In this document: in pieces, positions 1 to 24,004 of the stretch
Layout of the letters: every line of letters begins with the position of its first letter
Numbering within the stretch: position 1 is the stretch's first letter
Origin: Desulfatiglandales bacterium
Lineage (GTDB): Bacteria; Desulfobacterota; DSM-4660; Desulfatiglandales; Desulfatiglandaceae
Direction: 5' to 3'
NCBI GenBank assembly: GCA_963662465.1
Contig: OY759599.1
Coordinates: 6,816,001 to 6,880,000, forward strand
DNA length: 64,000 nt
Program-made: the position numbers and the translations under genes
Notes under the pieces: generated by a model
Database searches by the model: none
Told to the model about the DNA's origin: nothing
What the model saw: the letters and a program-made list of their open reading frames with translations, nothing else

Positions 1-612
1 CCATATGTCGAACCGCCCTACCTTGTTCATAAAAGAAAGATCGATCAGTACGGCTACGCCGCGGTTAATGGGAATTACTATTGGATTCCGGGAACGCGAC
101 GTCATGACGTCAAGGTCCTGCAATATGCCGATTATTTAGATATTTATCACCAAAGAAAACTCTTGGGACGTTATGTTTTGCCGCCTGACGGCGTCAGGAA
201 TGACGTCATCACTCCCGAGGGGGTAACAAAACCTTCTCACAAACCCTCGCAACGAAAAAAGCCAACGGCGCGGGAAGAAAACATTCTGCGATCAGATAAG
301 GCCATTAATGATTATTTGAATTTCGCTTTACCCAAAAGTGGTAAGGCCAGGCATCACTTCATCCGAGCGCTTTTCAGCCTATATCGAAAAACCGCTCCTA
401 CGGTTTTTATAAAAACGGTACAACGAGCCTTGAAATATCGCATTAAGGACATCAAAGTCATTGAAAACATAGTTGTTTTGATTTTAAGAGACGCTAGTAT
501 CGAATTGGGGACACCTGAAATTGAACCGGATTTCACGAAAAGGGATGCCTATATCGAGGGCTGTTTTACCGATGAGCCGGATCTTTCCATTTATGAGGAT
601 GAAAATGAATGA
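1..612 (+). CDS. istA: IS21 transposase IstA, C-terminal part (5' truncated by the window)
   Basis: Frame 1 is open from base 1 (PYVEPPYLVHKRKIDQYGYAAVNGNYYWIP...), an IstA-like C-terminal region; overlaps the istB start. Confidence 0.8.
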   Translation, partial: PYVEPPYLVHKRKIDQYGYAAVNGNYYWIPGTRRHDVKVLQYADYLDIYHQRKLLGRYVLPPDGVRNDVITPEGVTKPSHKPSQRKKPTAREENILRSDKAINDYLNFALPKSGKARHHFIRALFSLYRKTAPTVFIKTVQRALKYRIKDIKVIENIVVLILRDASIELGTPEIEPDFTKRDAYIEGCFTDEPDLSIYEDENE

Positions 613-1351
613 TGAGTTGATAAAGATGCTGAAATACCTTCGGCTCAATGTGTTGATTGAAAACTGGGATCGGTATCTCAAAATCGGCGCAAAAGGGGAT
701 TATTCCCATGCGCGACTGTTGGAATATGTTGTTTCCGAGCAATATCAAATTAAAAAGGAAAACGCCCGCAAGATGAGAGTCAAACGAGCCGGTATTCCAG
801 AAAAATTTGTTTTGGAGACCTTTCCTTTCAAGCGCCAGCCTAATCTCAATAAAAAGAGAATCGAATCCATATACGACGGTTTTGATTACATGACCAAATC
901 CCGCAATATCATCTTCATTGGGCCGACGGGCACGGGAAAAAGCGGGCTGGCCACGGCGTTTCTGATCCACGCTATCAACCAGGGCTACAACGGGCTGTTT
1001 ATCACTTTCCCTGAACTGGTGGAACGTCTTTACCAATCGATGGCGGATAATACTCAGGCAAAGACCATCAAGAAGCTGTTATCCTATGATTGTTTGCTGA
1101 TTGATGAGCTTGGTTATATTCAAATAGAATCGGTTCAAGTGGGTCTATTTTTTAATCTAATGCAAAAAAGACATAAAAACAAAACGACCCTCATTACATC
1201 CAACCTCGGATTCGAAAAATGGAATTCCTTTCTTAAGAACAAGCATCTCACAGCCGCCCTGATCGATCGACTGACTGAAAGCAGTCATATCATCAATATG
1301 AAAAACTGCATAAGCTTAAGGCAGAGGCTTGATGAGGTTCCGGAGACATGA
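605..1351 (+). CDS. istB: IS21 helper AAA+ ATPase IstB
   Basis: Walker A GPTGTGKS, Walker B LLIDELG, ITSNL, AALIDRL. Confidence 0.93.
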   Translation: MNDELIKMLKYLRLNVLIENWDRYLKIGAKGDYSHARLLEYVVSEQYQIKKENARKMRVKRAGIPEKFVLETFPFKRQPNLNKKRIESIYDGFDYMTKSRNIIFIGPTGTGKSGLATAFLIHAINQGYNGLFITFPELVERLYQSMADNTQAKTIKKLLSYDCLLIDELGYIQIESVQVGLFFNLMQKRHKNKTTLITSNLGFEKWNSFLKNKHLTAALIDRLTESSHIINMKNCISLRQRLDEVPET

Positions 1352-1842
1352 CAAAACTTTTTTCGGCAAAGGAGCTTTACAGCGTGAGAAATGACATCCC
1401 GATTTCCGGTCTGATTGAAAACGTGCTGAATATACCGGCTCGCACAACTGAAGGGGTTTTCAGATTTCTTTGTCCTGTATGCGGGGAATTTAACACGGCG
1501 GTTAATCCAAAAACCAATCTGGCCAGATGTTTCTACTGTAAAAAAAACTTCAACACCATTGATCTGGTGATGATTGTCAAAAAGGCAAATTTTGTAGAAG
1601 CCGTCCGCTTTCTGAAAGCACACAAAAATAGATGTCAAAGTCATTGTGTTTCCAAAAAATCGGAAGATCACACTCAATCTCCCCAGCATATTGCCGACAT
1701 TGTAAAATCAATCATGCCCGCCAAACCGGATTCTGACCATCCAGAATCCATTGAAAGCATATCGAAGCGGGTTTTATGCATCGAGAAGATGCTTGAGCAA
1801 ATGACCCATCAAATGGGAATTATAGTAAAAACAATCACATAA
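1348..1842 (+). CDS. CHC2/primase-type zinc-finger protein
   Basis: FLCPVCGE...ARCFYCKKNFNTIDLV...FVEAVRFL resembles the DnaG zinc-binding domain; ATGA overlap with istB. Confidence 0.75.
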   Translation: MTKLFSAKELYSVRNDIPISGLIENVLNIPARTTEGVFRFLCPVCGEFNTAVNPKTNLARCFYCKKNFNTIDLVMIVKKANFVEAVRFLKAHKNRCQSHCVSKKSEDHTQSPQHIADIVKSIMPAKPDSDHPESIESISKRVLCIEKMLEQMTHQMGIIVKTIT

Positions 1843-2257
1843 CTCATTTCCTGGAATTTCATGCGAAAATAGGGTGTTCTGTTTTGATAGTCGTGTAACG
1901 CTAATCAAATTTTGGAGGTGGAAATGCGAGGCGGAAAGCGTGCTGGAGCCGGTCGAAAAAAGAAGCCGGATCACTTGAGACGTGAGTTGGTGACAATTCG
2001 ACTACCGAGGTGGATGATTACACAGCTTAAAAACAATGGTGAAATTGGCTATTTGATTGAGGATCTACTGGCAAAAAAGGGTTCCCTGAATCCACCCCGG
2101 GCGGCCACCCAAAATCCCCCACCTGTGGCCACTTGAAAATCCCCCACCTAAAGAGGTTCAAAATGTAGATTTTTGATCTTCGGCTCAATTCACAAAATGG
2201 TGACAGGACGTTATACCATCTCCCAATGCAATTTAATTGAATTGGGAGGAAGAAAGG

Positions 2258-4942
2258 ATGAACGTTTTGAAGCCGGACAAGAAATCTACCATCATTACCC
2301 TACTTAAAAATGGCGTTGGTCAGCGTGAAGTACATCGTAAGACCAATATTGACAGGAAAACGATCCGAAAATACGCAAAAGAAAGTGGCTTTTTACCCGA
2401 AGATTCCGACTTAAATTCAAGATCCCCCACCCTGGCCACCGGGGCTGATTGCATCATCAGTGAAAATCCCCCACCCCGGCCACCGGTAAACAGCACATTC
2501 AAGGGAGAAAAACGGGCGATTCCACTCCATGCCAGATCAGCATGTGAGCCTCACCGAGAATGGATTGAAAAGCAGGTGAAGCTCGGGAGGAATGCCGTAG
2601 CGATTTACCAAGATTTGGTCGAGCGATTTGCCTTTACCCACAAATACAACAGCGTAAAGCGGTTTGTAAGGGGACTGAGAAAAGAGGACCCCAAGCAATT
2701 CGATCGATTGGAGTTTTTACCAGGGGAAGAGGCTCAGGTAGACTATGGCACGGGAGCCAAAACGCTTCATTCGACAGGGAAATACCGTAAAACTCGTCTC
2801 TTTATAATGACGTTGAAATACTCCAGGCGCTCATTCCGGAAAGTAGTTTGGCAATCAAGCAAAGAAACATGGGCAAAACTTCATGAGGAGTCATTTCGAT
2901 ATTTCGGAGGTTGCCCCCAATATGTGGTTCTGGACAATTTGAAAGAGGGCGTCATCAAACCGGATCTTTACGAACCTGAATTGAACACCGTCTATGCGGC
3001 CATGCTGGAGCATTACGGGGTTGTTGCAGATCCGGCAAGAGTTAGAGACCCAAACCGGAAAGGGACTGTTGAAAATGCCGTACAGCATACCCAAGACACA
3101 GCTTTAAAAGGTCGCACATTTGAATCGATTGAACGACAGAATGAATGGCTTATGCACTGGGAGGAACAATGGGCTGCTCAGCGGATACACGGGAGAACCA
3201 AGCGACAGGTTGAAGAAATGTTTCAAGAAGAAAAACCGTACCTTAAACAACTTCCCTTAACTGCATTCAGCTATTTCAGCCAAGAAATCCGTACGGTCTG
3301 GGATGACGGCGCCATTCAGGTGGGGAAATCCTATTATTCAGCCTTGCCGGCGCCCCTTTATACAAAGGTTATTGTCAGGATTTATGACAGAGAGATTGAG
3401 ATTATCAATCCTGTAACAATGGAGATTTTCCGCAGGCACGCCAAGAACAGCAGGCCGGGATCTGTCAATATACCGCCGGAAGATAGGATTTTTAATCCTT
3501 CACGTCAAACAACGTATCTCTTTGCCAAAGCAGAGAGCATTGGTCCCGCAACTTTAAAATTATGCAAGGTCTTGTTTGAGGAAGAAGGCAGAACCGGTCA
3601 AAGACGAATACAGGGGATTGTCAACCTGGTCCGACATTATGAGGCCCGTTACGTGGAACAGGCCTGCATCAAAGCCAATAATGTGGGGCTGCGCAATTAC
3701 AAATCCATCCGCAACCTTGTCAAAACGTTAGCCGAAAAAAACCAGGAAGAAAAGGATTCTGAGGGGCTGATTCAGGAACATAAATTAATACGCCCTCCGG
3801 AAGATTATGCTGCATTCTGGGAGCAGCACGCCGCACAGACACCGGTTTCGGAGGAAGGAGCAAACCGTTTTGTCATGCCCAAAGAGCAACTACCCGCAGT
3901 TTGGAAAAATGCAAGCTGGGAGAGAGTGATTGATGTTTTTGGCCTGGAAGTTGATGGAAACCGCCGCTGTAAGGCCAACGAGACATGGATCAAATCGCCT
4001 TTTACAGGCGAAAAAACTGCTTCGCTGCATTTGAACCTGACGGAGAATATCTTCAAGGATTTCAGCAGTGGCCTGGGGGCGAAAGTCGGTGTACTCAATT
4101 TCTGCCAGGATCTTTTAGCGCTGCGAGGCCAGGCAATGAATTGCTATGAAGTTGCCTCCTGGATGGTGGAAAATGGAATTTCAAATTTGGATATACGTTC
4201 ACGCGAGGTTAAAAACCATGTTCCTGAACTCAAAAAACCGAAAGAAAACAAACCGATTCAAGTGGATTTAAGGCGTTTTGTACAGCCGCAACATCCAGAA
4301 TTAAAACATCGACAGGTTTCAGAGGCGACATGTCGCTATCTGGGATGTGGTTTTCTCCCGGAAAGGCCGAATGGAAACAAACAGTCACCTCTCAATGGCC
4401 GGTTGGTGTTTCAAGTGCGGGGAATGTCCGGCGCTATACTGACACATGTCGGTCGTGCATTGACACTGCAGCAAGAAAAAACGAATGGGAAATACTGGAG
4501 CTTTCCGTTCTTCAAAAAACTGGAAATATACAACCAGGACAAACTGTTATCAGATGCTTCAGCAAAGGATCAAGTTCAGCGGCTTGGCTTGGTGCTGGTA
4601 GAAGGTTTTTTTGATGTGGCAGTTTTGGTCGAATCGGGTTGTTTGAACGTCGGAGCACTGATGGGGTCGCACATGACCGAACAACAGGCAGCCCGAATAA
4701 AGTTAATCAGCTCACACATTGAGATTCCCAAAATTACCGTTTTTTTGGACAGGGATGAAGCTGGGAGGATTGGCGCACAAAAAGCAGTTACTGTGCTGCG
4801 GAAAAATGGGTTTTCAGCCGAGGCCTTTGACTGGAACCAGACCCTTGGGTCGTCATTTGTGAAAATCCCAATGGCCGTTATGGATCCAGGCGATATGTCG
4901 TTAAGGCAGCTAAAGTGGTTGAGAAAAAAGGGAAACATTTGA
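2258..4942 (+). CDS. istA: IstA DDE transposase fused to a DnaG-like primase (degenerate zinc-binding domain plus TOPRIM core), 894 aa
   Basis: N-terminal HTH; DDE motifs AQVDYG / VVLDNLK / KGTVENAV; C-terminal KSPFTGEKTASL...FKDFSS, GRLVFQVR...VGRAL, LVEGFFD, GALMGS, FLDRDEAG, DPGD. Confidence 0.88.
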   Translation: MNVLKPDKKSTIITLLKNGVGQREVHRKTNIDRKTIRKYAKESGFLPEDSDLNSRSPTLATGADCIISENPPPRPPVNSTFKGEKRAIPLHARSACEPHREWIEKQVKLGRNAVAIYQDLVERFAFTHKYNSVKRFVRGLRKEDPKQFDRLEFLPGEEAQVDYGTGAKTLHSTGKYRKTRLFIMTLKYSRRSFRKVVWQSSKETWAKLHEESFRYFGGCPQYVVLDNLKEGVIKPDLYEPELNTVYAAMLEHYGVVADPARVRDPNRKGTVENAVQHTQDTALKGRTFESIERQNEWLMHWEEQWAAQRIHGRTKRQVEEMFQEEKPYLKQLPLTAFSYFSQEIRTVWDDGAIQVGKSYYSALPAPLYTKVIVRIYDREIEIINPVTMEIFRRHAKNSRPGSVNIPPEDRIFNPSRQTTYLFAKAESIGPATLKLCKVLFEEEGRTGQRRIQGIVNLVRHYEARYVEQACIKANNVGLRNYKSIRNLVKTLAEKNQEEKDSEGLIQEHKLIRPPEDYAAFWEQHAAQTPVSEEGANRFVMPKEQLPAVWKNASWERVIDVFGLEVDGNRRCKANETWIKSPFTGEKTASLHLNLTENIFKDFSSGLGAKVGVLNFCQDLLALRGQAMNCYEVASWMVENGISNLDIRSREVKNHVPELKKPKENKPIQVDLRRFVQPQHPELKHRQVSEATCRYLGCGFLPERPNGNKQSPLNGRLVFQVRGMSGAILTHVGRALTLQQEKTNGKYWSFPFFKKLEIYNQDKLLSDASAKDQVQRLGLVLVEGFFDVAVLVESGCLNVGALMGSHMTEQQAARIKLISSHIEIPKITVFLDRDEAGRIGAQKAVTVLRKNGFSAEAFDWNQTLGSSFVKIPMAVMDPGDMSLRQLKWLRKKGNI

Positions 4943-4999
4943 TTTCCATCGCCACGTTCTCGGTGGCGCGGAAATTTGTTTAACCTAAACGGCCATCCG

Positions 5000-5475
5000 A
5001 AGGAATCGGGCTTATGTATAAGCGAATATGGTCGGACTTTTTGAATCTCGTTACACGATAATCATAGGGCTTGATTGTTTTGGAGGTGAAAATGGGAGGC
5101 GGAAAACGTATGGGAGCCAGTCGAAAAAAGAAATCAGATCATTTGAGACGTGAACTGCTGACAATTCGATTGCCGAAGTGGATGATTTCACAGCTCAAAA
5201 ACAAATGTGAAATTGGCTATTTGATCGAGGATCAATTAAGGAATCGGGCTTATGTATAGGCGAATATGGTCGGACTTTTTGAATCTCGTTACACGATAAT
5301 CATAGGGCTTGATTGTTTTGGAGGTGAAAATGCGAGGCGGAAAACGTACGGGAGCCGGTCGAAAAAAGAAATCAGATCATTTGAGACGTGAACTGCTGAC
5401 AATTCGATTGCCGAAGTGGATGATTTCACAGCTCAAAAACAAATGTGAAATTGGCTATTTGATCGAGGATCAATT
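5000..5475 (+). repeat. 238-bp imperfect tandem duplication covering the RHH-like gene and its upstream region
   Basis: 5000-5237 matches 5238-5475 with about 4 substitutions. Confidence 0.93.
5092..5259 (+). pseudogene. RHH-like gene copy 2, C-terminus replaced at the duplication junction
   Basis: MGGGKRMGASRKKK...EDQLRNRAYV; GGxRxGAGR motif degraded. Confidence 0.7.
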
Positions 5476-5527
5476 GAGGAAGATAGATTTTTTGGATATC
5501 CCGGATGACTATGACATTGATAACTGA
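5330..5527 (+). CDS. Small RHH-like (BrnA-like) DNA-binding protein copy 3
   Basis: MRGGKRTGAGRKKK...LLTIRLPKWMISQLK; GGAGGTG ribosome-binding site. Confidence 0.8.
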   Translation: MRGGKRTGAGRKKKSDHLRRELLTIRLPKWMISQLKNKCEIGYLIEDQLRKIDFLDIPDDYDIDN

Positions 5528-5550
5528 AATCGAGAAAGGAGAAACTGAAT

Positions 5551-6324
5551 ATGCCGATGTCAATGCAGGAAATAGAGAAAAGTCTAGGAACGCTACGTTT
5601 AAGCGGTATGCGAGCAACATTAGAAACCCGAGTGATACAGGCAAATCAAGGAGAATCTTCTTTCCTGGAAGTCTTTTCATGCCTGCTTCAGGATGAGTTA
5701 GATTACAGGCGGTCGTGCCTGATAGAACGTAGATTTAATGCTTCCGGTCTTCGTGAGAGAAAAACATTGACTGAGTTTGATTGGGGCTTTAATCCAAGAC
5801 TTCCAAAAAAGGAAATTTTTGAACTGGTGACCATCAAATTTATACACAACGGTGAAGACGCACTCCTGATCGGTTCTCCCGGGACTGGGAAAAGCCATAT
5901 CGTTAAAACAATTGCTCATGCTGCAACACAGGCATGCCATCAGGTTGTTTATCGTGAGGCCCATACTTTCTTTGAAGATGTCTTCGAAGCAGCCCAAACA
6001 GGGAAGACAAAAAAAATAACAAAGCTTTTTTCAGAAGCAGACTTGCTAATAATAGATGATCTTTTCCTGAGAAAAAGGGTCCCTGAACATGCGGCAGATG
6101 ATCTTCTTGATATCATACTGAATCGTTATTCCAAAAGAAAAAGTACACTCATAACATCAAACCGTCCGGTGGAGGACTGGGGTAAACTGCTCAGAGACAA
6201 TGCCGCATCCTCTGCGATCCTTGACAGGTTGCTCCACCGAGGCCATTTGCTCAAATTTGAAGGAAAAAGCTACAGGCTAAAGGAGGCTGCAGAAAAACTT
6301 GCCATAGGGAAGAAAAAAGAATAA
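5551..6324 (+). CDS. istB: IS21 helper ATPase IstB
   Basis: GSPGTGKS, LIIDDL, ITSNRP, AILDRLLH. Confidence 0.93.
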   Translation: MPMSMQEIEKSLGTLRLSGMRATLETRVIQANQGESSFLEVFSCLLQDELDYRRSCLIERRFNASGLRERKTLTEFDWGFNPRLPKKEIFELVTIKFIHNGEDALLIGSPGTGKSHIVKTIAHAATQACHQVVYREAHTFFEDVFEAAQTGKTKKITKLFSEADLLIIDDLFLRKRVPEHAADDLLDIILNRYSKRKSTLITSNRPVEDWGKLLRDNAASSAILDRLLHRGHLLKFEGKSYRLKEAAEKLAIGKKKE

Positions 6325-6865
6325 AGTGTAACCGTTCTGTCGCTGAAGATCTTTCCAATGCCACGGTCAAGATCCTACATGGCCACCTTCACAGGTGGGG
6401 GATTTTGGGGTGGCCACAAGTGGGGGATTTTGAAGTGGCCATCCGGGTCCACCTGATGATTATGATTTCAATAGCTGAAATCGACGGACCCATTCATCTC
6501 TTTTCTACGATTTGATTGAAAACGCCTTCCAACCGACATCTGAAATAGCCCCAGGTTGTATCCAACACTGAAGTCCCCCACAAGTCAGCGTGTTTGTCCA
6601 TAGCTTAGCACGGCTTTTCGGATCGAACCTGTCGCAAATATCCAGGTCAAATTTCGATACGGCCTGCTGGTTTGTAGTCGTTTGCTCAGCCGTTCCGGCA
6701 TCAATCTCCTTCTCCAACTTAAGCCATTTTTCCGCTGCGGGGTAGCAGCAAAGGCGGGGTTCTATTCAATTCTTGGGGCGGGGTGAGCATAGCTGCAGGG
6801 TAGTCGTGCGAACGAACGTATCAGTTTTCATGAGCAGAAGTGTATCAGTTTATCTGAGCGCCATA

Positions 6866-7156
6866 GGGGAGGGCATACTCCAAGGCACGAAACAAATCTT
6901 GTAACTTAAGTGAGTAGATGTAGGTAATGGCATTTACCCGTTTGACAATATCTGACCTGTACCAAGTGTTAAGGCTTTTTATATCGATCACCCAACCAGG
7001 TTTTTTTTCATTTGGTACTACTATCCATGGATATTCATTTGGATAAATCTCAATCGCCGATTCAGCCTTTATCCATAAGATGGAAAGATACTCACGGTCA
7101 GGGCAAGTAGAATCTTTGATAAAGTCTGCGAGAAAATCTTGAAAATTTTCTTTCAT
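6866..7156 (-). pseudogene. Hypothetical, probably cassette-borne gene, 3' end cut by element A
   Basis: AT-rich ORF MKENFQDF... runs into the IS21 terminal repeat. Confidence 0.55.
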
Positions 7157-7716: not shown

Positions 7717-8267
7717 TTTCACTAACGTAAAATCGCGGTCTGATATTGGAAGCAGTCAAGAGACTGGAGTTGTTGAAGCAAGCAGCTTAATCCGACTCAG
7801 AAAAATCGTAACGATAAATCATAAATAGCTTATTTTCCGATAGAAATAGGTGTTTAACTGAAAAACGTACACGGTATTCAAAAATATTGGACGAATTTGA
7901 AGGTGAAAAGGAGCGATGAAAATGAGAGGTGGGAGTCGAAAAGGCGCTGGTCGAAAAAGGAGTCCTGAACATCTGAGGCGTATCCCCGTCACGATTCGGT
8001 TACCGAAGTGGATGGTTTCACAGATCAAAATGAAAGGCGAGATAGGGTATTTGATTGAACTCGAATTAGCGACGAAAAAGGGTTTTCTCGACTTACCAGA
8101 TGATTATCTGGTCGGAAGCTGACTAAGGTGCGGTTATGGTCGCTCTTTTAATGGATATTTCGGCAGGAGCCACCGGAGCCTTCTATGACCTCGTCGCAGC
8201 TTACAATTACTCATATGGGGGTCAAAATTCGGTTGTCGCAAGAGGTCAATTTTCGGTTGACATTTCG
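7710..8267 (+). mobile_element. 558-bp mini-element carrying only an RHH-like gene, with an IS21-type right end
   Basis: Direct repeat AGAAAAGA at 7702-7709 and 8268-8275; tandem GGTCAAAATTCGGTTG / GGTCAATTTTCGGTTG at 8220-8259; left end degenerate. Confidence 0.6.
7922..8122 (+). CDS. Small RHH-like protein copy 4
   Basis: MRGGSRKGAGRKR...VTIRLPKWMVSQIK...LPDDY. Confidence 0.8.
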   Translation: MRGGSRKGAGRKRSPEHLRRIPVTIRLPKWMVSQIKMKGEIGYLIELELATKKGFLDLPDDYLVGS

Positions 8268-8284
8268 AGAAAAGAAAGGTGGAA

Positions 8285-10372
8285 ATGAGCATGAGCAATA
8301 AAATCAATGCTGAACATATTAGTCGGGAAGCATGTATATATATCCGTCAGTCAACACCGGGCCAAGTTCTACAGCATCGTGAAAGCCAACTTTTACAATA
8401 TGGCTTGGTAGAAAGGGCAAAAGAATTAGGATGGAACGAGAAAAACATATGGATGATAGATAGTGATTTGGGAATAACTGCATCGGGATGCGTTGACAGA
8501 AAAGGATTCCAGAATCTTCTTTCATCTGTGTGTGAAGGAAGAATAGGGGGTATTTTCTCGATTGAATCATCGAGGTTGGCCCGCAACGGTCGAGAGTGGC
8601 ATACGTTGCTTGAGATCTGTGCACTTAAAAAAACGGTTCTTGTAGATCAAGGAGCTGTTTATGACCTAAACGTGTCAAATGATCGTTTGCTCCTGGGCTT
8701 AAAGGGAGAAATGAGTGCAATGGAATTGAGCCTATTAAAGGAACGTTCTCAGGCGGCAATACAACAAAAAGCGAAGCGGGGAGAATTATATCTTACTGTA
8801 CCGGCAGCCTATATAAAGACCAGGGATAATAAGCTGAAAAAGAATCCTGACAAACGAATTCAAGAAGTCATTGATTTGGTATTCACGAAATTCAAGGAAT
8901 ATGGCGCCCTTCGTCGGGTGTATCATTGGTTTTTAGATAAACAGATTGAGATTGCTGTTGTTTCCAGCGGTAAAGGGGAACGTAGGATAGAGTGGAAACT
9001 ACCGTCTGCTCATACCTTCTCGCATATAGTGAACAACCCAATTTACGCCGGCGCCTACGCCTATGGCCGGACTAAAACAGAGGTAACTTTTGAAAATGGG
9101 CGCAAGCGACTGAGGAAGGGTATTCGTAAGGAACAAAAGGATTGGGACGTTTTAATATTGGATCACCATGAAGGTTACATCACATGGGAAGAGTACCAGT
9201 ATAACATGGAGATACTAACTCAAAATACAAATAAGAAAAGGCCGGTGGTGAGAGGAGCTGTTCGCGGAGGAAAGGCATTGCTTGGAGGTTTGTTAAGATG
9301 CGGTCATTGCGGTAGAAAGTTAATTGTACGATACCAAGGCCGTAATGGAACTCATAAACGTTATGAGTGTAGCCGCAAACGAGGTAACGAGACAGGAAAG
9401 GCGTGTATATCATTTGGTGGATTCCGTGTTGACCGGGCTGTTACGGATTTTCTTTTGAAAGTATTATCACCGATAGGATTAGAAGCTTCTTTAGAGGCGA
9501 TAAAGAAAATCAACCATGAATCGGATTCAGTGAAACGGCAACGGGAACTGGAGTTGGAACAAGCGCGTTATGAAGCTTTACGGGCAAAACGTCAATACAA
9601 TGCAGTGGACCCTGATAATCGTTTGGTAGCATCTACATTGGAGAAGGATTGGAATGACGCTCTTGTTAAGGTAGCAAGATTGGAGAATGAGATTACCGCT
9701 ATGGGGTCGAACACCCCTTCGCTTTCCCCTGAGGAAGAGACCGAGATCAGAGATCTGTCACAAGATTTACCTCGTGTATGGAATGATCCGTGTTGCTCTT
9801 TGGATTTAAAGAAGCGTATAATCCGGACGGTTATCAAAGAGATCGTTGTTTATTTGGAAGAGCAAAAGATCAAATTAATCATTCACTGGGAAGGGGGTGA
9901 GCATACGGAATTGGAGGTACTGAAGAATAAGTCTTCCAGTTACCCATTGAAAACCGATGTTGATACAAAAAAGATAATATCCGATTTGGCTAGAATTATG
10001 CCTGATAAACACATCGTGGCCTTTCTCAACCGTGTGGGTACAAAGACTACAAAGGGATATACCTGGAATCCGGTAAGGTTGCGTTCATTTCGAAATAGGC
10101 ATAATATCCCTGTATATCATGAAGGAGAGAGGCAGCGACGAGAAGAATATACGGTAGCTGAAGCAAGCGAAAGGCTGGGTATTGGCAGCACCAAAGTTTG
10201 GAGACTTATACAACATGAGATTCTACCCGCCAAGCGAGTATGTTCCGGTGCTCCATGGATCATTTCAAAAAAGGACCTTGAATCTGAAGTGATAAAAAAG
10301 GCAGCTCATTCCGGGCTTCCAAAGAGCCCGCTTTCAAGAAACTCAAAACAACAAGTCTTTAATTTTCAATAA
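8285..10372 (+). CDS. Large serine recombinase (resolvase, recombinase, zinc ribbon and C-terminal HTH domains)
   Basis: Catalytic YIRQST, SSRLARN, NPIYAGAY, LLRCGHCG, C-terminal YTVAEASERLG. Confidence 0.93.
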   Translation: MSMSNKINAEHISREACIYIRQSTPGQVLQHRESQLLQYGLVERAKELGWNEKNIWMIDSDLGITASGCVDRKGFQNLLSSVCEGRIGGIFSIESSRLARNGREWHTLLEICALKKTVLVDQGAVYDLNVSNDRLLLGLKGEMSAMELSLLKERSQAAIQQKAKRGELYLTVPAAYIKTRDNKLKKNPDKRIQEVIDLVFTKFKEYGALRRVYHWFLDKQIEIAVVSSGKGERRIEWKLPSAHTFSHIVNNPIYAGAYAYGRTKTEVTFENGRKRLRKGIRKEQKDWDVLILDHHEGYITWEEYQYNMEILTQNTNKKRPVVRGAVRGGKALLGGLLRCGHCGRKLIVRYQGRNGTHKRYECSRKRGNETGKACISFGGFRVDRAVTDFLLKVLSPIGLEASLEAIKKINHESDSVKRQRELELEQARYEALRAKRQYNAVDPDNRLVASTLEKDWNDALVKVARLENEITAMGSNTPSLSPEEETEIRDLSQDLPRVWNDPCCSLDLKKRIIRTVIKEIVVYLEEQKIKLIIHWEGGEHTELEVLKNKSSSYPLKTDVDTKKIISDLARIMPDKHIVAFLNRVGTKTTKGYTWNPVRLRSFRNRHNIPVYHEGERQRREEYTVAEASERLGIGSTKVWRLIQHEILPAKRVCSGAPWIISKKDLESEVIKKAAHSGLPKSPLSRNSKQQVFNFQ

Positions 10373-20486: not shown

Positions 20487-21146
20487 CCAATTCTCAAAAG
20501 AAAACGAACAAAATGCCATGTTTTCGCTTTTAACCAAGGCCAATGAACGGCAATGGGAAGTCATTGAGCAGTCTGTTTTACTTCAGGAATTACATCGGCG
20601 TTTTGGGTGCAGCCTCTCCCATATTGCAACCCGAATAGGGCGCGACAAGAGTTTTGTAAAACGGCGGCTGGACCTGGTTGAAGCCCTGCCGGAAAATATT
20701 TTGAGAACCGTGATTGCAGGCTCACTTTCAACCTGGGCTGCCAGCCGTGTCATGGCGCCGTTGGCGCGCGCCAACGGTGAAGACGCACAAAAACTGTTGG
20801 CCCACCTGGAAAAAGAACCTCTATCCACAAGGGAACTGGCCCGTTTCTACGCACATTACCAGAAAAGCAACCGGTCTGTTCGAGACCACATGCTGGAAAA
20901 TCCATCCCTTTTCATAAAAGTTCTCGAACAAAGAACCCAGTCTAAACAAGCCAAAGAAGTTCATGATGGACCGGAAGGCAAATGGTTCAAGGATATTGAA
21001 ATGGTATATGCGGTTCTCAAACGTCTGGTGAAAACCGTTTCGCATGTCCATTACCCAAAAAGCGATCAGTTGAAGAAACAAACGCTCAAAACCTGGGTGA
21101 AAAAGATAGAAAAACAAGCACTGGAACTCAAGAAAGCGACCCAATT

Positions 21147-22529
21147 ATGATCCGACAATCCAAAAAAGATGCCATTGTGGAATTGAAAAAAACCGGCATG
21201 AGTTTGCGCGACATCGCCAAAACCCTGAAGGCCGGTCGCAATACCGTCACGAAGGTTTTAGATGATCATGACGAAGAGGCGGTACCCCAAAGGAACTCCC
21301 GGTATGAAGAACATGTCCCGTTGATCCGCGAGCTTTTCAAGGAATGTAAAGGAAATGCCGTGCGAGTAGCCGAGGAACTGGAAAGCCGCCAACAGATCAA
21401 AATCCCTTATCAGAGTCTGACCTGGATTATGAGAAAGTACGAGATCCGGGAACGTAAAAAAAGACGGGCGGGCCAATACCATTTTAAACCCGGTCAGGAG
21501 ATGCAGCATGATACGTCACCCCATCTGGTTGTCATTAATGGGAAAAAAATGTCGACCCAGTGCGCGTCCCTGACCCTGGCCTTTTGCCGAAGGATTTTTA
21601 TTCAGTATTACCCCTGTTTTACCCGGTTTGAGTGCAAGGTTTTCCTAAAAAAAGCATTCGAGTTTATGGACGGGGTGTGTTCCCGGTGCATGGTTGACAA
21701 CACCAATGTTATTGTGGCCGGCGGCACCGGGCCTGATGCATTGATTGCGCCTGAAATGAAATACTTCGGCGATATGTATGGAACCCGGTTTGAGGCCCAT
21801 GCTGTAGGAGACGCCAATCGAAGTGCCCGTGTGGAAAGGCCTTTTCATTTTGTGGAAAACAATTTTCTTCCCGGTAGAACATTTGTTAGCTGGCAGGATT
21901 TGAACCGGCAGGCAATCGACTGGTGCCGGAATACAAGCGATAAAAAGTTTAAACGGGCTTTAGGGATGACGCCGGATGAGGCCTATGTCATTGAAAAGCC
22001 ATATCTCATTGATTTACCGGCATACCAGCCGCCAGTCTATGTGGCAGAACACAGGGTAGCCGATGTTCAGGGATATGTGCACTTGGACACCAACCGCTAT
22101 TCAGTCCCTGAAGCGCTGATTGGGAACTCCCTGGAAGTACAGAAACATTGGCTCAAGGTCATCGTTTACGACAAAAACACAAAAGTGGCGGAACATGACC
22201 GCATACTGGATAAACGCAACACCCGAACAACCCTGCCCGGTCACCATGTTCCCATTCGAAGAAAAAAAGATCCCCGAATCCCTTCAAAAGAAGAACAGCT
22301 GTTGACGGGAGAGGATGCCATCCTGGATGAGTATGTGGCTGAACTGAAGAAAAGAAGTCACGGTCGCGGTGTGGTCAAGTTACGTCGGTTGCTTCATCTG
22401 AAACGCACTTATCCCGGGGAACCTTTTTTGAAAGCCATAACACAGGCGCTTAAATATGGACTTTTTGATTTGTCGCGTCTGGAAAACATTATTCTCGATT
22501 ATATCGCGGGAGACTTTTTTGATCTATGA
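21147..22529 (+). CDS. istA: IS21 transposase IstA
   Basis: N-terminal HTH; MQHDTS / MVDNT / ARVERPF. Confidence 0.9.
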   Translation: MIRQSKKDAIVELKKTGMSLRDIAKTLKAGRNTVTKVLDDHDEEAVPQRNSRYEEHVPLIRELFKECKGNAVRVAEELESRQQIKIPYQSLTWIMRKYEIRERKKRRAGQYHFKPGQEMQHDTSPHLVVINGKKMSTQCASLTLAFCRRIFIQYYPCFTRFECKVFLKKAFEFMDGVCSRCMVDNTNVIVAGGTGPDALIAPEMKYFGDMYGTRFEAHAVGDANRSARVERPFHFVENNFLPGRTFVSWQDLNRQAIDWCRNTSDKKFKRALGMTPDEAYVIEKPYLIDLPAYQPPVYVAEHRVADVQGYVHLDTNRYSVPEALIGNSLEVQKHWLKVIVYDKNTKVAEHDRILDKRNTRTTLPGHHVPIRRKKDPRIPSKEEQLLTGEDAILDEYVAELKKRSHGRGVVKLRRLLHLKRTYPGEPFLKAITQALKYGLFDLSRLENIILDYIAGDFFDL

Positions 22530-23245
22530 AAAAGAAAATTGAACAGTTACTCATTGATTTGAAGTTTAAAGGCATGCTGAAGGCTCTCGAAGAACAGTTG
22601 GCTTCGGCTGAAAAGAACGGTTTTTCCATTCACGAGGTCATCTACAATCTCCTGGCTGAGGAATTACGTTTCCGGCAGGAGCGCAGCATGATCTATCGGG
22701 TCCAGATTGCAAAGCTTCCATGGGAATGGACCCTCAACTCCTTTCCGTTTGATCTTCAGCCGGGAATACAGAAGAGCCGGATCATGACGTTGTCCGGCCT
22801 TGACTTTATCAGCCGAAGAGAAAACATCGTGTTCCATGGAAAAACCGGCGTCGGCAAAACGGGATTGGCCGTGGGGATCCTTCGTCAAGCCATTATTGCC
22901 GGGTACCGGGGGCGTTTTTATAATGTTCAGGATTTGCTGGATCAGCTCTATGCGTCTTTGGCAGATCGGTCCACCCCGAAACTCCTCAATGCCCTTTGCA
23001 GATATGACCTGCTTCTGCTCGATGAACTGGGATACCTGACCCTCAAAAAAGAGCAGATGAACGCCTTTTTTAAACTCATGAAAGATCGCTATGAAGCCGG
23101 TCGGTCCACAATTATTACGACCAATCTTCAACCTGAACAATGGTATTCGCTGCTTGAACCAAAGGACATGGTCGATGCCTTGCTGGATCGTCTCAACCAT
23201 CGCTGCATCAACATTCATATTGATGGTCCTTCCCTCAGAAAATGA
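22526..23245 (+). CDS. istB: IS21 helper ATPase IstB
   Basis: GKTGVGKT, LLLDELG, ITTNL, ALLDRL. Confidence 0.93.
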   Translation: MKKKIEQLLIDLKFKGMLKALEEQLASAEKNGFSIHEVIYNLLAEELRFRQERSMIYRVQIAKLPWEWTLNSFPFDLQPGIQKSRIMTLSGLDFISRRENIVFHGKTGVGKTGLAVGILRQAIIAGYRGRFYNVQDLLDQLYASLADRSTPKLLNALCRYDLLLLDELGYLTLKKEQMNAFFKLMKDRYEAGRSTIITTNLQPEQWYSLLEPKDMVDALLDRLNHRCINIHIDGPSLRK

Positions 23246-23343
23246 GATGTTCGCCAAAGGGCCGGTTTTGAGGTCTGAATATCACCGGTCTGTTTGAATC
23301 TCGTTACACGAATATCAGAAATTACCTTGTCTTGGAGCTTGAA

Positions 23344-23541
23344 ATGAGAGGTGGAAAACGGGTAGGCGCCGGCCGAAGAAAGAAACCGGAACATTTGAGA
23401 CGTGAACTGCTCACCATTCGTCTCCCCAAATGGATGATTCTACAGCTGAAAAAAAACGGGGAAATTGGATATTTGATTGAGGATCAATTGGCGAAGGGAG
23501 GCCTCCTGAATTTACCGGACGACTATGACATAGACAAATAG
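23344..23541 (+). CDS. Small RHH-like protein copy 5
   Basis: MRGGKRVGAGRRKK...TIRLPKWM...LPDDYDIDK. Confidence 0.8.
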   Translation: MRGGKRVGAGRRKKPEHLRRELLTIRLPKWMILQLKKNGEIGYLIEDQLAKGGLLNLPDDYDIDK

Positions 23542-24004
23542 TTCCTCAATAAGCATTGCCCTTAACCGAAAAATCTAATCCCCTCTTCTCTGCCATCACC
23601 ATATTGATGGTATCCTCATCACTGATTCTTCAACCAGAACGCTACGTGTCTCACCAGCATTTTTAAAATACCATCTGATATACTCTTTCATGCAACCTCT
23701 AACAAATTTACAAGAAAACCCTTCTAAAAGGAAAAGACCAGTGCGCAATATCTGGTTCCGTTTGGAGTAGCAAAACTGGTTCCATTTTGGTTAGCGCCCA
23801 AGATTGAAAACCGATTCTTCTATTAAAAATATCTTGAAGAGTACTTGAAAACAACATTTCTCGTAGTGGTGGCACCTCCTTTCGAATCTTATTGTACGGG
23901 GCTAACAAGTTCGTGTAAAAATTGCATTGGCTCGTAGCATTATCGGTTATTTGTCTACGGTTTCCATAACCAGCGCTATTTTTTTTGGAATCTTACCTCC
24001 GCAC

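Follow-up and report, generated by a model that had tools for sequence, protein, structure and literature searches.

An IS21-family insertion sequence from a Desulfatiglandales bacterium with its transposase IstA fused to a predicted zinc-less primase of the DnaG type

The DNA analysed here, referred to as the window, is a stretch of 64,000 nucleotides (nt) from a Desulfatiglandales bacterium (assembly GCA_963662465.1, contig OY759599.1, forward-strand positions 6,816,001 to 6,880,000), and window positions 2097..6447 are occupied by an IS21-family insertion sequence (IS) of 4,351 bp whose ends were set by comparing its three genomic copies. The first gene of this element, an istA-primase fusion gene on the + strand (2258..4942), encodes a protein of 894 amino acids (aa) plus stop, as delineated by open reading frame (ORF), Pfam and NCBIfam scans. 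The uninterrupted open frame spans 2237..4942 (+) and would yield 901 aa from a TTG start; the ATG at 2258, which yields 894 aa, is preceded by a GGGAGG Shine-Dalgarno sequence and agrees with the MNVLKP start of related proteins. A first-pass annotation of the window, made from its sequence alone, had proposed just such a single 894-aa in-frame ORF joining IstA to a primase, and both the ORF call and contigs from two DNA sequencing runs bear it out.

The IstA core, comprising a helix-turn-helix (HTH) and a DDE catalytic domain with the triad D162/D226/E272, lies at residues 14-333 (2297..3256, +), which match the NCBIfam model transpos_IS21 (NF033546) with 261.6 bits for a cut-off of 160. The solved IS5376 IstA structures (8b4h/8q4d) were also matched (E 5e-24), and the alignment places the HTH at residues 15-42. 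Conservation was followed throughout in a set of 19 fusions, namely the window gene and 18 further loci that are 47-100% identical in the primase part, and the DDE triad is invariant in all of them. The intact HTH and catalytic triad read by the first-pass annotation therefore stand, with NF033546 above its cut-off and the IS5376 structures matched. Pfam rve gave no match to the fusion protein at E <= 0.01; for most of the listed relatives PF00665 (rve) appears in the precomputed Pfam column. The IstA C-terminal region (residues 334-545; 3257..3892, +) consists of beta-strands, a helical part and a poorly conserved linker at about 486-545, and is annotated as PF22483 (Mu-transpos_C_2) on relatives. 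An alignment of 116 rows revealed variable linkers between conserved motifs at about 486-545 and at 640-665. Residues 497-538, with predicted local distance difference test (pLDDT) values <50, and 646-665 are unmodelled in a full-length AlphaFold model that is itself poor overall: built from a 41-row alignment, it reached a mean pLDDT of 61.6, with the DDE core also <50, and was dropped as a guide to domain packing because its quality was too low.

The C-terminal half is predicted to be a two-domain DnaG-type primase that lacks zinc and a DnaB-binding domain, an identity assigned because sequence matches, fold matches and aligned motifs all point to it. A zinc-ribbon-like primase domain (residues 546-640; 3893..4177, +) is followed by a primase RNA-polymerase domain (residues 670-894; 4265..4939, +), in which the TOPRIM part comprises residues 778-858 (nt 4589-4831) and the key residues are R715, R733, K745, E782, D786, D831, D833, D876 and D879. 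TIGR01391 (dnaG) matches residues 698-861 with an E of 5e-21 (model positions 184-337 of 414), Pfam Toprim_2 and Toprim_4 exceed their cut-offs at residues 778-858, and sequence comparison links residues 531-894 to the RNA-polymerase domains of four DnaG proteins of known structure (4e2k, 2au3, 5guj and 5vaz; E 2e-7 to 3e-6). The profile searches that the first-pass annotation had suggested thus came out in part, with Toprim_2, Toprim_4 and dnaG found and rve, zf-CHC2 and Toprim_N not matched at E <= 0.01. All the motifs it had quoted (SPFT, DFSS, GRLVF, VGR, KY, VEGFFD, FLDRD and DPGD) are present in the translation. VEGFFD aligns to the EGxxD motif of DnaG and FLDRDEAG to DGDxAG, corresponding to E782/D786 and D831/D833, respectively; the equivalence of the catalytic residues to those of Escherichia coli DnaG we assume from these motifs. 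The stretch KSPFTGEKTASLHLNLTENIFKDFSSGLGAK aligned weakly to the zinc-binding domain of Aquifex DnaG, and its zinc-ligand positions are occupied by S580, T583, D601 and S604, so that the CHC2 ligands of DnaG are missing.

An AlphaFold model of residues 531-894, built from 34 sequences, reached a pLDDT of 91.6. The top Foldseek match of this model is the Aquifex structure containing the zinc-binding and RNA-polymerase domains (2au3, E 5e-16, 394 columns), and other DnaG catalytic domains were matched with E values of 1e-11 to 3e-8. The 13 best fold matches listed (ranks 1-18) are DnaG primases, followed by the T7, T4 and Twinkle primases, and the isolated zinc-binding domain of Bacillus (1d0q) is also among the matches. 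A structure prediction had been put forward in the first-pass annotation as a way of checking the assignment, and the outcome is a DnaG-type primase fold. The helicase-binding domain is absent, as the protein stops 15 residues past the last acidic motif and the dnaG match ends at position 337 of 414. Measured against DnaG, the protein thus has the RNA-polymerase/TOPRIM fold and the catalytic acidic and basic residues, and lacks the zinc ligands, the helicase-binding domain and a score reaching the TIGR01391 cut-off. A separate 632-aa open frame with Toprim_2 located elsewhere in the genome is presumably the host's own DnaG.

R715, R733, K745, E782, D786, D831, D833 and D876 are identical in 19/19 fusions and D879 in 18/19, and S580, T583, D601 and S604 are likewise identical in 19/19. 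The loss of catalytic residues in homologs that would have spoken against the first-pass annotation is therefore not seen, and its description of a zinc-binding-domain homolog that has lost the ligands next to retained catalytic motifs agrees with the alignment, the fold matches and the 19 fusions. Nei-Gojobori estimates from 16 sequences (120 pairs; the first 40 of the 68 pairs with dS 0.05-1.5) gave dN/dS values of 0.09-0.18 for IstA and 0.10-0.90 for the linker; in the primase half they were 0.05-0.26 (zinc-ribbon-like domain) and 0.11-0.38 (polymerase domain). These estimates support the view that the fusion is kept under purifying selection in both halves across a large family.

Identity among the three genomic copies of the element starts at 2095-2097. 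The left terminal inverted repeat (2097..2149, +; repeat pairs I1, I3 and I6) contains two direct copies of AAAATCCCCCACC (2111-2123 and 2136-2148), the right one (6390..6447, -) contains two inverted copies of the 13-mer (6394-6406 and 6419-6431), and the terminal pair has 90% complementarity over 40 nt. The 13-mer AARATCCCCCACC was found six times in the window for 0.47 occurrences expected, always within the fusion element, and includes inner copies in the 5' part of istA (2419..2475, +; at 2419-2431 and 2463-2475), 310-365 bp inside the left end. IS21 has the terminal repeats L1-L3, and by analogy these inner 13-mers are candidate transposase-binding sites. They fall in codons of a proline-rich IstA stretch (..ENPPPRPP..) whose N70, P72, P75 and P76 are nearly invariant in the 41-row alignment; because of this overlap, the stretch may be constrained both as a DNA site and as protein.

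The element is flanked by the target-site duplication TCCACC (2091..2096 and 6448..6453, from comparison of the flanks) and interrupts a small gene that belongs to another IS21-like element, larger at 5 kb. An uninterrupted second copy of this larger element reads ...GAATCCACCTGATGA... with a single TCCACC, and since it reads through the site, the insertion and the 6-bp duplication are proven. Another copy of the fusion element is flanked by CCGTC(C/A) on both sides, and the remaining one shows no clean target duplication (at most 7 of 8 positions if 8 bp are assumed). The three copies of the element, fusion gene included, are 100% identical and occupy different places in the single-contig genome, where a fourth, partial copy persists as a 562-bp remnant of the left end. 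Downstream of the fusion gene lies istB (5551..6324, +), which codes for the helper AAA+ ATPase of 257 aa (PF01695, E 7e-51; NF038214, 212.5 bits for a cut-off of 200). Between the two genes, a unit of 238 bp that includes the gene for a small basic protein is duplicated in tandem (5000..5475, +; repeat family D1, 98% identity), the gene copies being at 5071-5259 (a 62-aa variant) and 5309-5527 (72 aa). The unit is doubled in all three genomic copies, single in loci L026-L029 of related elements and lacking in more distant fusion elements. The element shares with the IS21 family the IstA HTH and DDE domains, a downstream IstB, multi-repeat inverted ends and mobility with a short (4-8 bp) duplication; it departs from the two-gene content of the family by the primase added to IstA and by the small gene, in two tandem copies, between istA and istB. 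Positions 2097..6447 are an intact, recently active IS21-family insertion sequence, and the complete element with inverted repeats, target duplication and istB that the first-pass annotation had recognised is confirmed in every part.

A contig of 2,933 nt from run X1 reproduces window positions 2119-5051 with zero differences, although X1 may be the source sample and hence not independent. In run X4, from a close relative, a contig of 1,076 nt aligns without gaps to 3227-4302, differs by 25 substitutions and spans the IstA/primase boundary at 3848. As neither DNA run reveals an indel or stop across this boundary, the stop or frameshift between the two halves that the first-pass annotation had named as fatal to the fusion is not there. 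A single indel is listed for the whole element, one nucleotide missing at 6009 (within istB) in a minor X1 contig. An X4 contig joins 4999 to 5238; therefore, the relative has one small-gene unit where the window has two. Metatranscriptome contigs from X8 and X11 cover 29/30 and 21/30 bins of the element; we claim no expression from them, because DNA carry-over is possible and contigs cannot show transcripts. A joint of the right end to the left end, as in a circle or tandem junction, was not listed among the contigs, which alone are uninformative on this point.

Searching with the whole protein revealed that, among the best 120 matches listed, 115 align over the full query length (100%), with identities of 61-93%. 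These relatives go by the source names 'IS21 family transposase', 'transposase' or 'ribonuclease M5' only, the last given by JGI for some. At E <= 1e-30, 558 protein clusters match the primase part (proteins of 491-1565 aa). A locus scan with a profile from a 14-row alignment, using one genome per species, returned 72 loci, of which 40 have a primase part at least 45% identical and are termed fusion-type. Twenty-four of these 40 are complete in one frame without stops, five are cut by a contig start with the IstA tail in frame, and in two only the primase part is visible; three carry one in-frame stop, five are frameshifted or degraded and one is a short fragment. istB lies just downstream of the fusion gene in 38/40. 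The expectation of the first-pass annotation that the same fusion would occur in other genomes is thus realised in the 24 complete in-frame loci and the 558 clusters, and the fusion, judged from these matches, defines a large IS21 subfamily. Fusion-type loci occur in several orders of Desulfobacterota, with Desulfoferrobacter suflitae DRH4 as an isolate among the hosts, and also in Acidobacteriota/Terriglobia, one Treponemataceae metagenome-assembled genome (MAG) and one Pseudomonadota MAG. Most hosts are Desulfobacterota and Acidobacteriota MAGs, and several MAGs bear three or four copies. In one Desulfatiglandales MAG (L026, locus 6001-7092), one of three near-identical copies has an in-frame stop in the primase part and the other two are intact. 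Of 401 genomes sampled from the phylum, three gave a match at E <= 1e-15; besides the source genome, these were a genome whose fusion frame measures 946 aa and another in which the matches are three standalone genes.

Compared with a library clustered at 50%, residues 531-894 gave 2,758 matches at E <= 1e-3, of which 70 reached E <= 1e-30. The best full-length matches outside the fusion cluster are standalone proteins of about 350-400 aa (about 380 aa for the nearest) with 29-45% identity over 364 residues. Their catalytic acidic and basic residues are nearly invariant as well, and most of them have also lost the zinc ligands (SPF...CFST), CPFH...CFGC being kept in the most distant ones only. 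IstA or IstB was found near the standalone genes in none of 23 loci at 29-44% identity. A scan of 47 of the 97 predicted neighbouring ORFs in eight of nine chosen loci, which set aside L071, ORFs that were far away or short, and the primase genes, revealed a MobA/VirD2 relaxase beside the standalone gene in 8/8 loci, a type IV coupling protein in five, MobC in two and tyrosine recombinases in two. The standalone relative at L023 (G279) differs from this pattern in having no relaxase among the 11 neighbouring ORFs scanned, which yielded IS3 transposases, an HTH-containing protein and, below threshold, a match to a type IV secretion system pilin. Two more Toprim_2 open frames in the source genome, of 348 and 362 aa (G000:C1:5364996-5365283 and 2926775-2927062), are similar in size to this standalone family.

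In a quick maximum-likelihood tree of 61 rows with a midpoint root, all 19 fusion primase domains group in one clade with a support of 99 in the Shimodaira-Hasegawa-like approximate likelihood ratio test (SH-aLRT). The clade also contains P0122, a 383-aa protein that may be a split or fragmentary fusion. A single origin of the fusion is supported by this grouping. The fusions are adjoined by a clade containing all nine relaxase-context proteins (SH-aLRT 99), and the forms bearing zinc ligands fall outside. As the relaxase-context clade is a sister and not a parent, and the root is a midpoint root, the tree does not give the donor or the direction of transfer.

The fusion element resembles canonical IS21 and IS5376 in the HTH and DDE core of IstA, the presence of IstB, the order of istA before istB, the multiple terminal repeats and the short target duplication; it differs in about 350 extra C-terminal residues of IstA, which correspond to the primase, and in the small gene, duplicated here, between istA and istB. 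At 4.35 kb, it is longer than canonical IS21 elements, which measure about 2-2.5 kb. With DnaG (2au3 from Aquifex aeolicus, 4e2k from Staphylococcus aureus, 1dd9 from E. coli), the primase half shares a zinc-ribbon fold followed by the RNA-polymerase/TOPRIM domain as well as the catalytic E, DxD, D..D and basic residues, but it has no zinc ligands and no DnaB-binding domain, is only about 20% identical in fold alignments and is fused to a transposase. T7 gp4 and Twinkle likewise join a DnaG-type primase without a DnaB-binding domain to a cooperating enzyme, which is a helicase in their case and a DDE transposase in the IS21 fusion. The standalone relaxase-context proteins share the two domains, the loss of most zinc ligands and the absence of a helicase-binding domain, but are separate genes without IstA or IstB nearby; we take them to be comparable in function to plasmid primases such as RP4 TraC and ColIb Sog. 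Another primase-family enzyme tied to insertion sequences is the IS-excision enhancer (IEE) of E. coli O157, a PrimPol-helicase. According to the available parts of two reports, it acts on insertion sequences thought to follow a copy-out/paste-in route, with IS21 among the listed families (bioRxiv 10.1101/2023.06.07.543989; PMC9943667). IEE, however, is a PrimPol of the archaeo-eukaryotic type that is encoded by the host or by an island and promotes excision in trans, whereas the fusion primase is part of the transposase itself. Full-text literature searches, which did not extend to supplements or ISfinder, turned up no published IstA-primase fusion, and the nearest item was the IEE preprint, which does not describe one; this agrees with the first-pass annotation, which knew of no description of the architecture.

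According to the accessible portions of two studies, IS21 integration in vitro needs IstA, IstB and DNA only (PMC10122671, PMC11208146); any role of the primase would therefore lie outside strand transfer. The extreme C-terminus of IstA is described as invisible in the holo-transpososome, with its role left undefined, and the beta-barrel ahead of it as contacting IstB (PMC11208146, in the part available). That excerpt also presents a replicative copy-out/paste-in route and the role of the IstA C-terminus as open questions for IS21, and IS21 is listed among the families with circular intermediates in the accessible text of a preprint (bioRxiv 10.1101/2023.06.07.543989). The location of the standalone relatives in conjugation modules and the absence of a DnaB-binding domain would fit a primase that acts on single-stranded DNA independently of a helicase. 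Plasmid primases are known to act on single-stranded DNA without DnaB.

We favour, with a probability of roughly one half, the reading that the C-terminal half is an active primase serving DNA synthesis coupled to transposition, copy-out being the likeliest step. The first-pass annotation had likewise proposed that the transposase tethers a primase, for self-primed replicative transposition or replication of a circular intermediate, a functional reading that is plausible as an inference. In the mechanism we envisage, a catalytically active primase half would hang on a flexible linker from IstA and so be held at the IS ends, where it would lay RNA primers on the strand left single-stranded in a replicative step. 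For this step we have in mind the route proposed for IS21, in which a circular or tandem intermediate is copied out; by priming itself, the 4.3-kb element could begin second-strand synthesis where it is needed, with no host primosome having to assemble, and IstA and IstB would afterwards carry out ordinary IS21 integration. The complete proposal, according to which these elements would be self-priming DDE transposons whose IstA-tethered, zinc-less primase primes the second strand at the IS end during copy-out, independently of the host primosome, is advanced more tentatively, as somewhat less likely than not.

Several observations weigh against an active primase in this role. None of the four zinc ligands is retained in any of the 19 fusions, and the residues that take their place do not vary; the zinc domain is required for template recognition in DnaG and T7 primase, and metazoan Twinkle has lost its zinc ligands and its primase activity alike. 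The dnaG score of 74.9 bits is far under the equivalog cut-off of 283.6, and neither Toprim_N nor zf-CHC2 was matched at the threshold given above. Canonical IS21 elements work without a primase, and the domain is therefore dispensable for the chemistry of transposition, while the replicative pathway of IS21 itself is only proposed, not proven. The fusion is also sparse, being carried by only 2/401 sampled genomes of the phylum, and 8/40 fusion-type loci contain stops or frameshifts (three with one in-frame stop, five frameshifted or degraded).

The lost zinc ligands in 19/19 fusions and the dnaG match below cut-off would also fit a DnaG-like half that no longer polymerises and instead serves for binding to DNA or single-stranded DNA, for targeting or for recruitment; it might, for instance, direct insertions to replication forks or single-stranded stretches, or engage host replication proteins, its metal site being kept for DNA binding only. 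The zinc-ribbon-like domain is, moreover, the most constrained part of the protein (dN/dS 0.05-0.26), as a binding surface would be. Yet six acidic metal-binding residues and three basic ones of the nucleotide/template site have changed little or not at all among fusions that are 47-100% identical, and they scarcely vary in the standalone relatives either; a module for binding alone would not require the full set. Recruitment of the replisome would call for the DnaB-binding domain, which the protein lacks. We consequently regard a pure binding module as unlikely, if still deserving of some weight. A different chemistry is conceivable in which the TOPRIM domain has nuclease activity and cleaves the non-transferred strand at the ends of the element, much as TnsA does in Tn7, thereby changing the pathway instead of priming. 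Nucleases are indeed also built on TOPRIM folds, RNase M5 and a presumed TOPRIM protein from Aquifex come up low in the fold list (ranks 42 and 48), and some relatives bear the JGI label 'ribonuclease M5'. This idea appears distinctly improbable: the DnaG, T7, T4 and Twinkle primases that head the fold matches cover the primase-specific N-subdomain and the zinc-ribbon fold, conservation extends to the primase motifs GRxVFQ, xGR and KY/KW, and no nuclease family was among the Pfam and NCBIfam matches at E <= 0.01.

An active primase might alternatively be used in another step, such as priming the lagging strand at the two forks of a Shapiro-type intermediate that leads to cointegrates, or replicating the element after transfer on a conjugative plasmid. 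The evidence for an active enzyme applies equally here, the closest relatives reside in conjugation and mobilization modules, and IS21 is known for replicon fusion, although its cointegrates are known to stem from tandemly arranged IS21 copies and to involve no replication of the element. Our data do not separate this possibility from the copy-out reading, and we consider it rather unlikely. There is next to no chance that the fusion is an artefact of assembly or annotation, or an accidental read-through of two genes without selected function. No support for this was found, and the eight broken loci of 40 are what any IS family would show; it is refuted by the three identical copies, the gap-free contigs of 2,933 nt and 1,076 nt over the boundary, the 24 independent complete in-frame loci in several phyla and the purifying selection on both halves.

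It is usually assumed that DDE insertion sequences of bacteria depend on host replication enzymes. Should the copy-out reading be true, this would be the first insertion sequence found with part of its own replication machinery, and it would provide direct genetic evidence for a replicative step in IS21 transposition. IS21 is a structural model for transposases under the control of an AAA+ helper, and a widespread, selected IstA-primase fusion is a strong hint of DNA synthesis coupled to transposition in this family. With an insertion sequence that itself provides the primase, the concept of 'self-synthesizing' mobile elements would come to include bacterial DDE insertion sequences. The family also offers biochemistry a compact, zinc-less DnaG-type primase that is predicted to be helicase-independent.

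The element in which the fusion IS is nested is 5,028 bp long, has inverted repeats of its own and occupies window positions 1-2096 and 6448-6866, continuing upstream; of its two genomic copies, the second is L015:2473-7500. It encodes a ParB-like protein (298 aa), a divergent IstA (494 aa, NF033546 under cut-off), an IstB (276 aa) and a small basic protein, together with a 164-aa DnaG-type zinc-ribbon protein whose cysteines are intact and whose start overlaps the istB stop (ATGA). This last protein was considered as a partner acting in trans with the zinc-less fusion and rejected, having no BLASTP similarity to the ribbon of the fusion (best E 0.74) and no other link to it.

The small basic proteins (frames of 62-89 aa) have an N-terminal RGGKRxGAGRKKK followed by TIRLPxWM, and 41 matches were found in the genome. 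Copies of the gene lie in the window at 1912-2096+6448-6475, 5071-5259, 5309-5527, 7916-8122 and ~23326-23535. No Pfam family was matched by the copies at window positions 1912 and 5309 and in L015, nor any NCBIfam family by those at 1912 and in L015. In the Atlas, unnamed clusters were matched at 0.92-0.95, and ribbon-helix-helix-type families, at <0.9, are leads only. The gene accompanies three different IS21-type elements and is also found upstream of a large serine recombinase of 697 aa (8279-10372; Resolvase, Recombinase, zinc ribbon and HTH_17), which directly follows one of its copies and may mark another mobile element. The third IS21-type element is a high-copy one, present at window positions ~20518-23600 and in about 25 other places of the genome, with 509-aa IstA frames. 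Its IstA is 25% identical to that of the fusion and accounts for 25/32 matches in the genome search for fusion copies, and in many of its copies the element is followed by the small basic gene.

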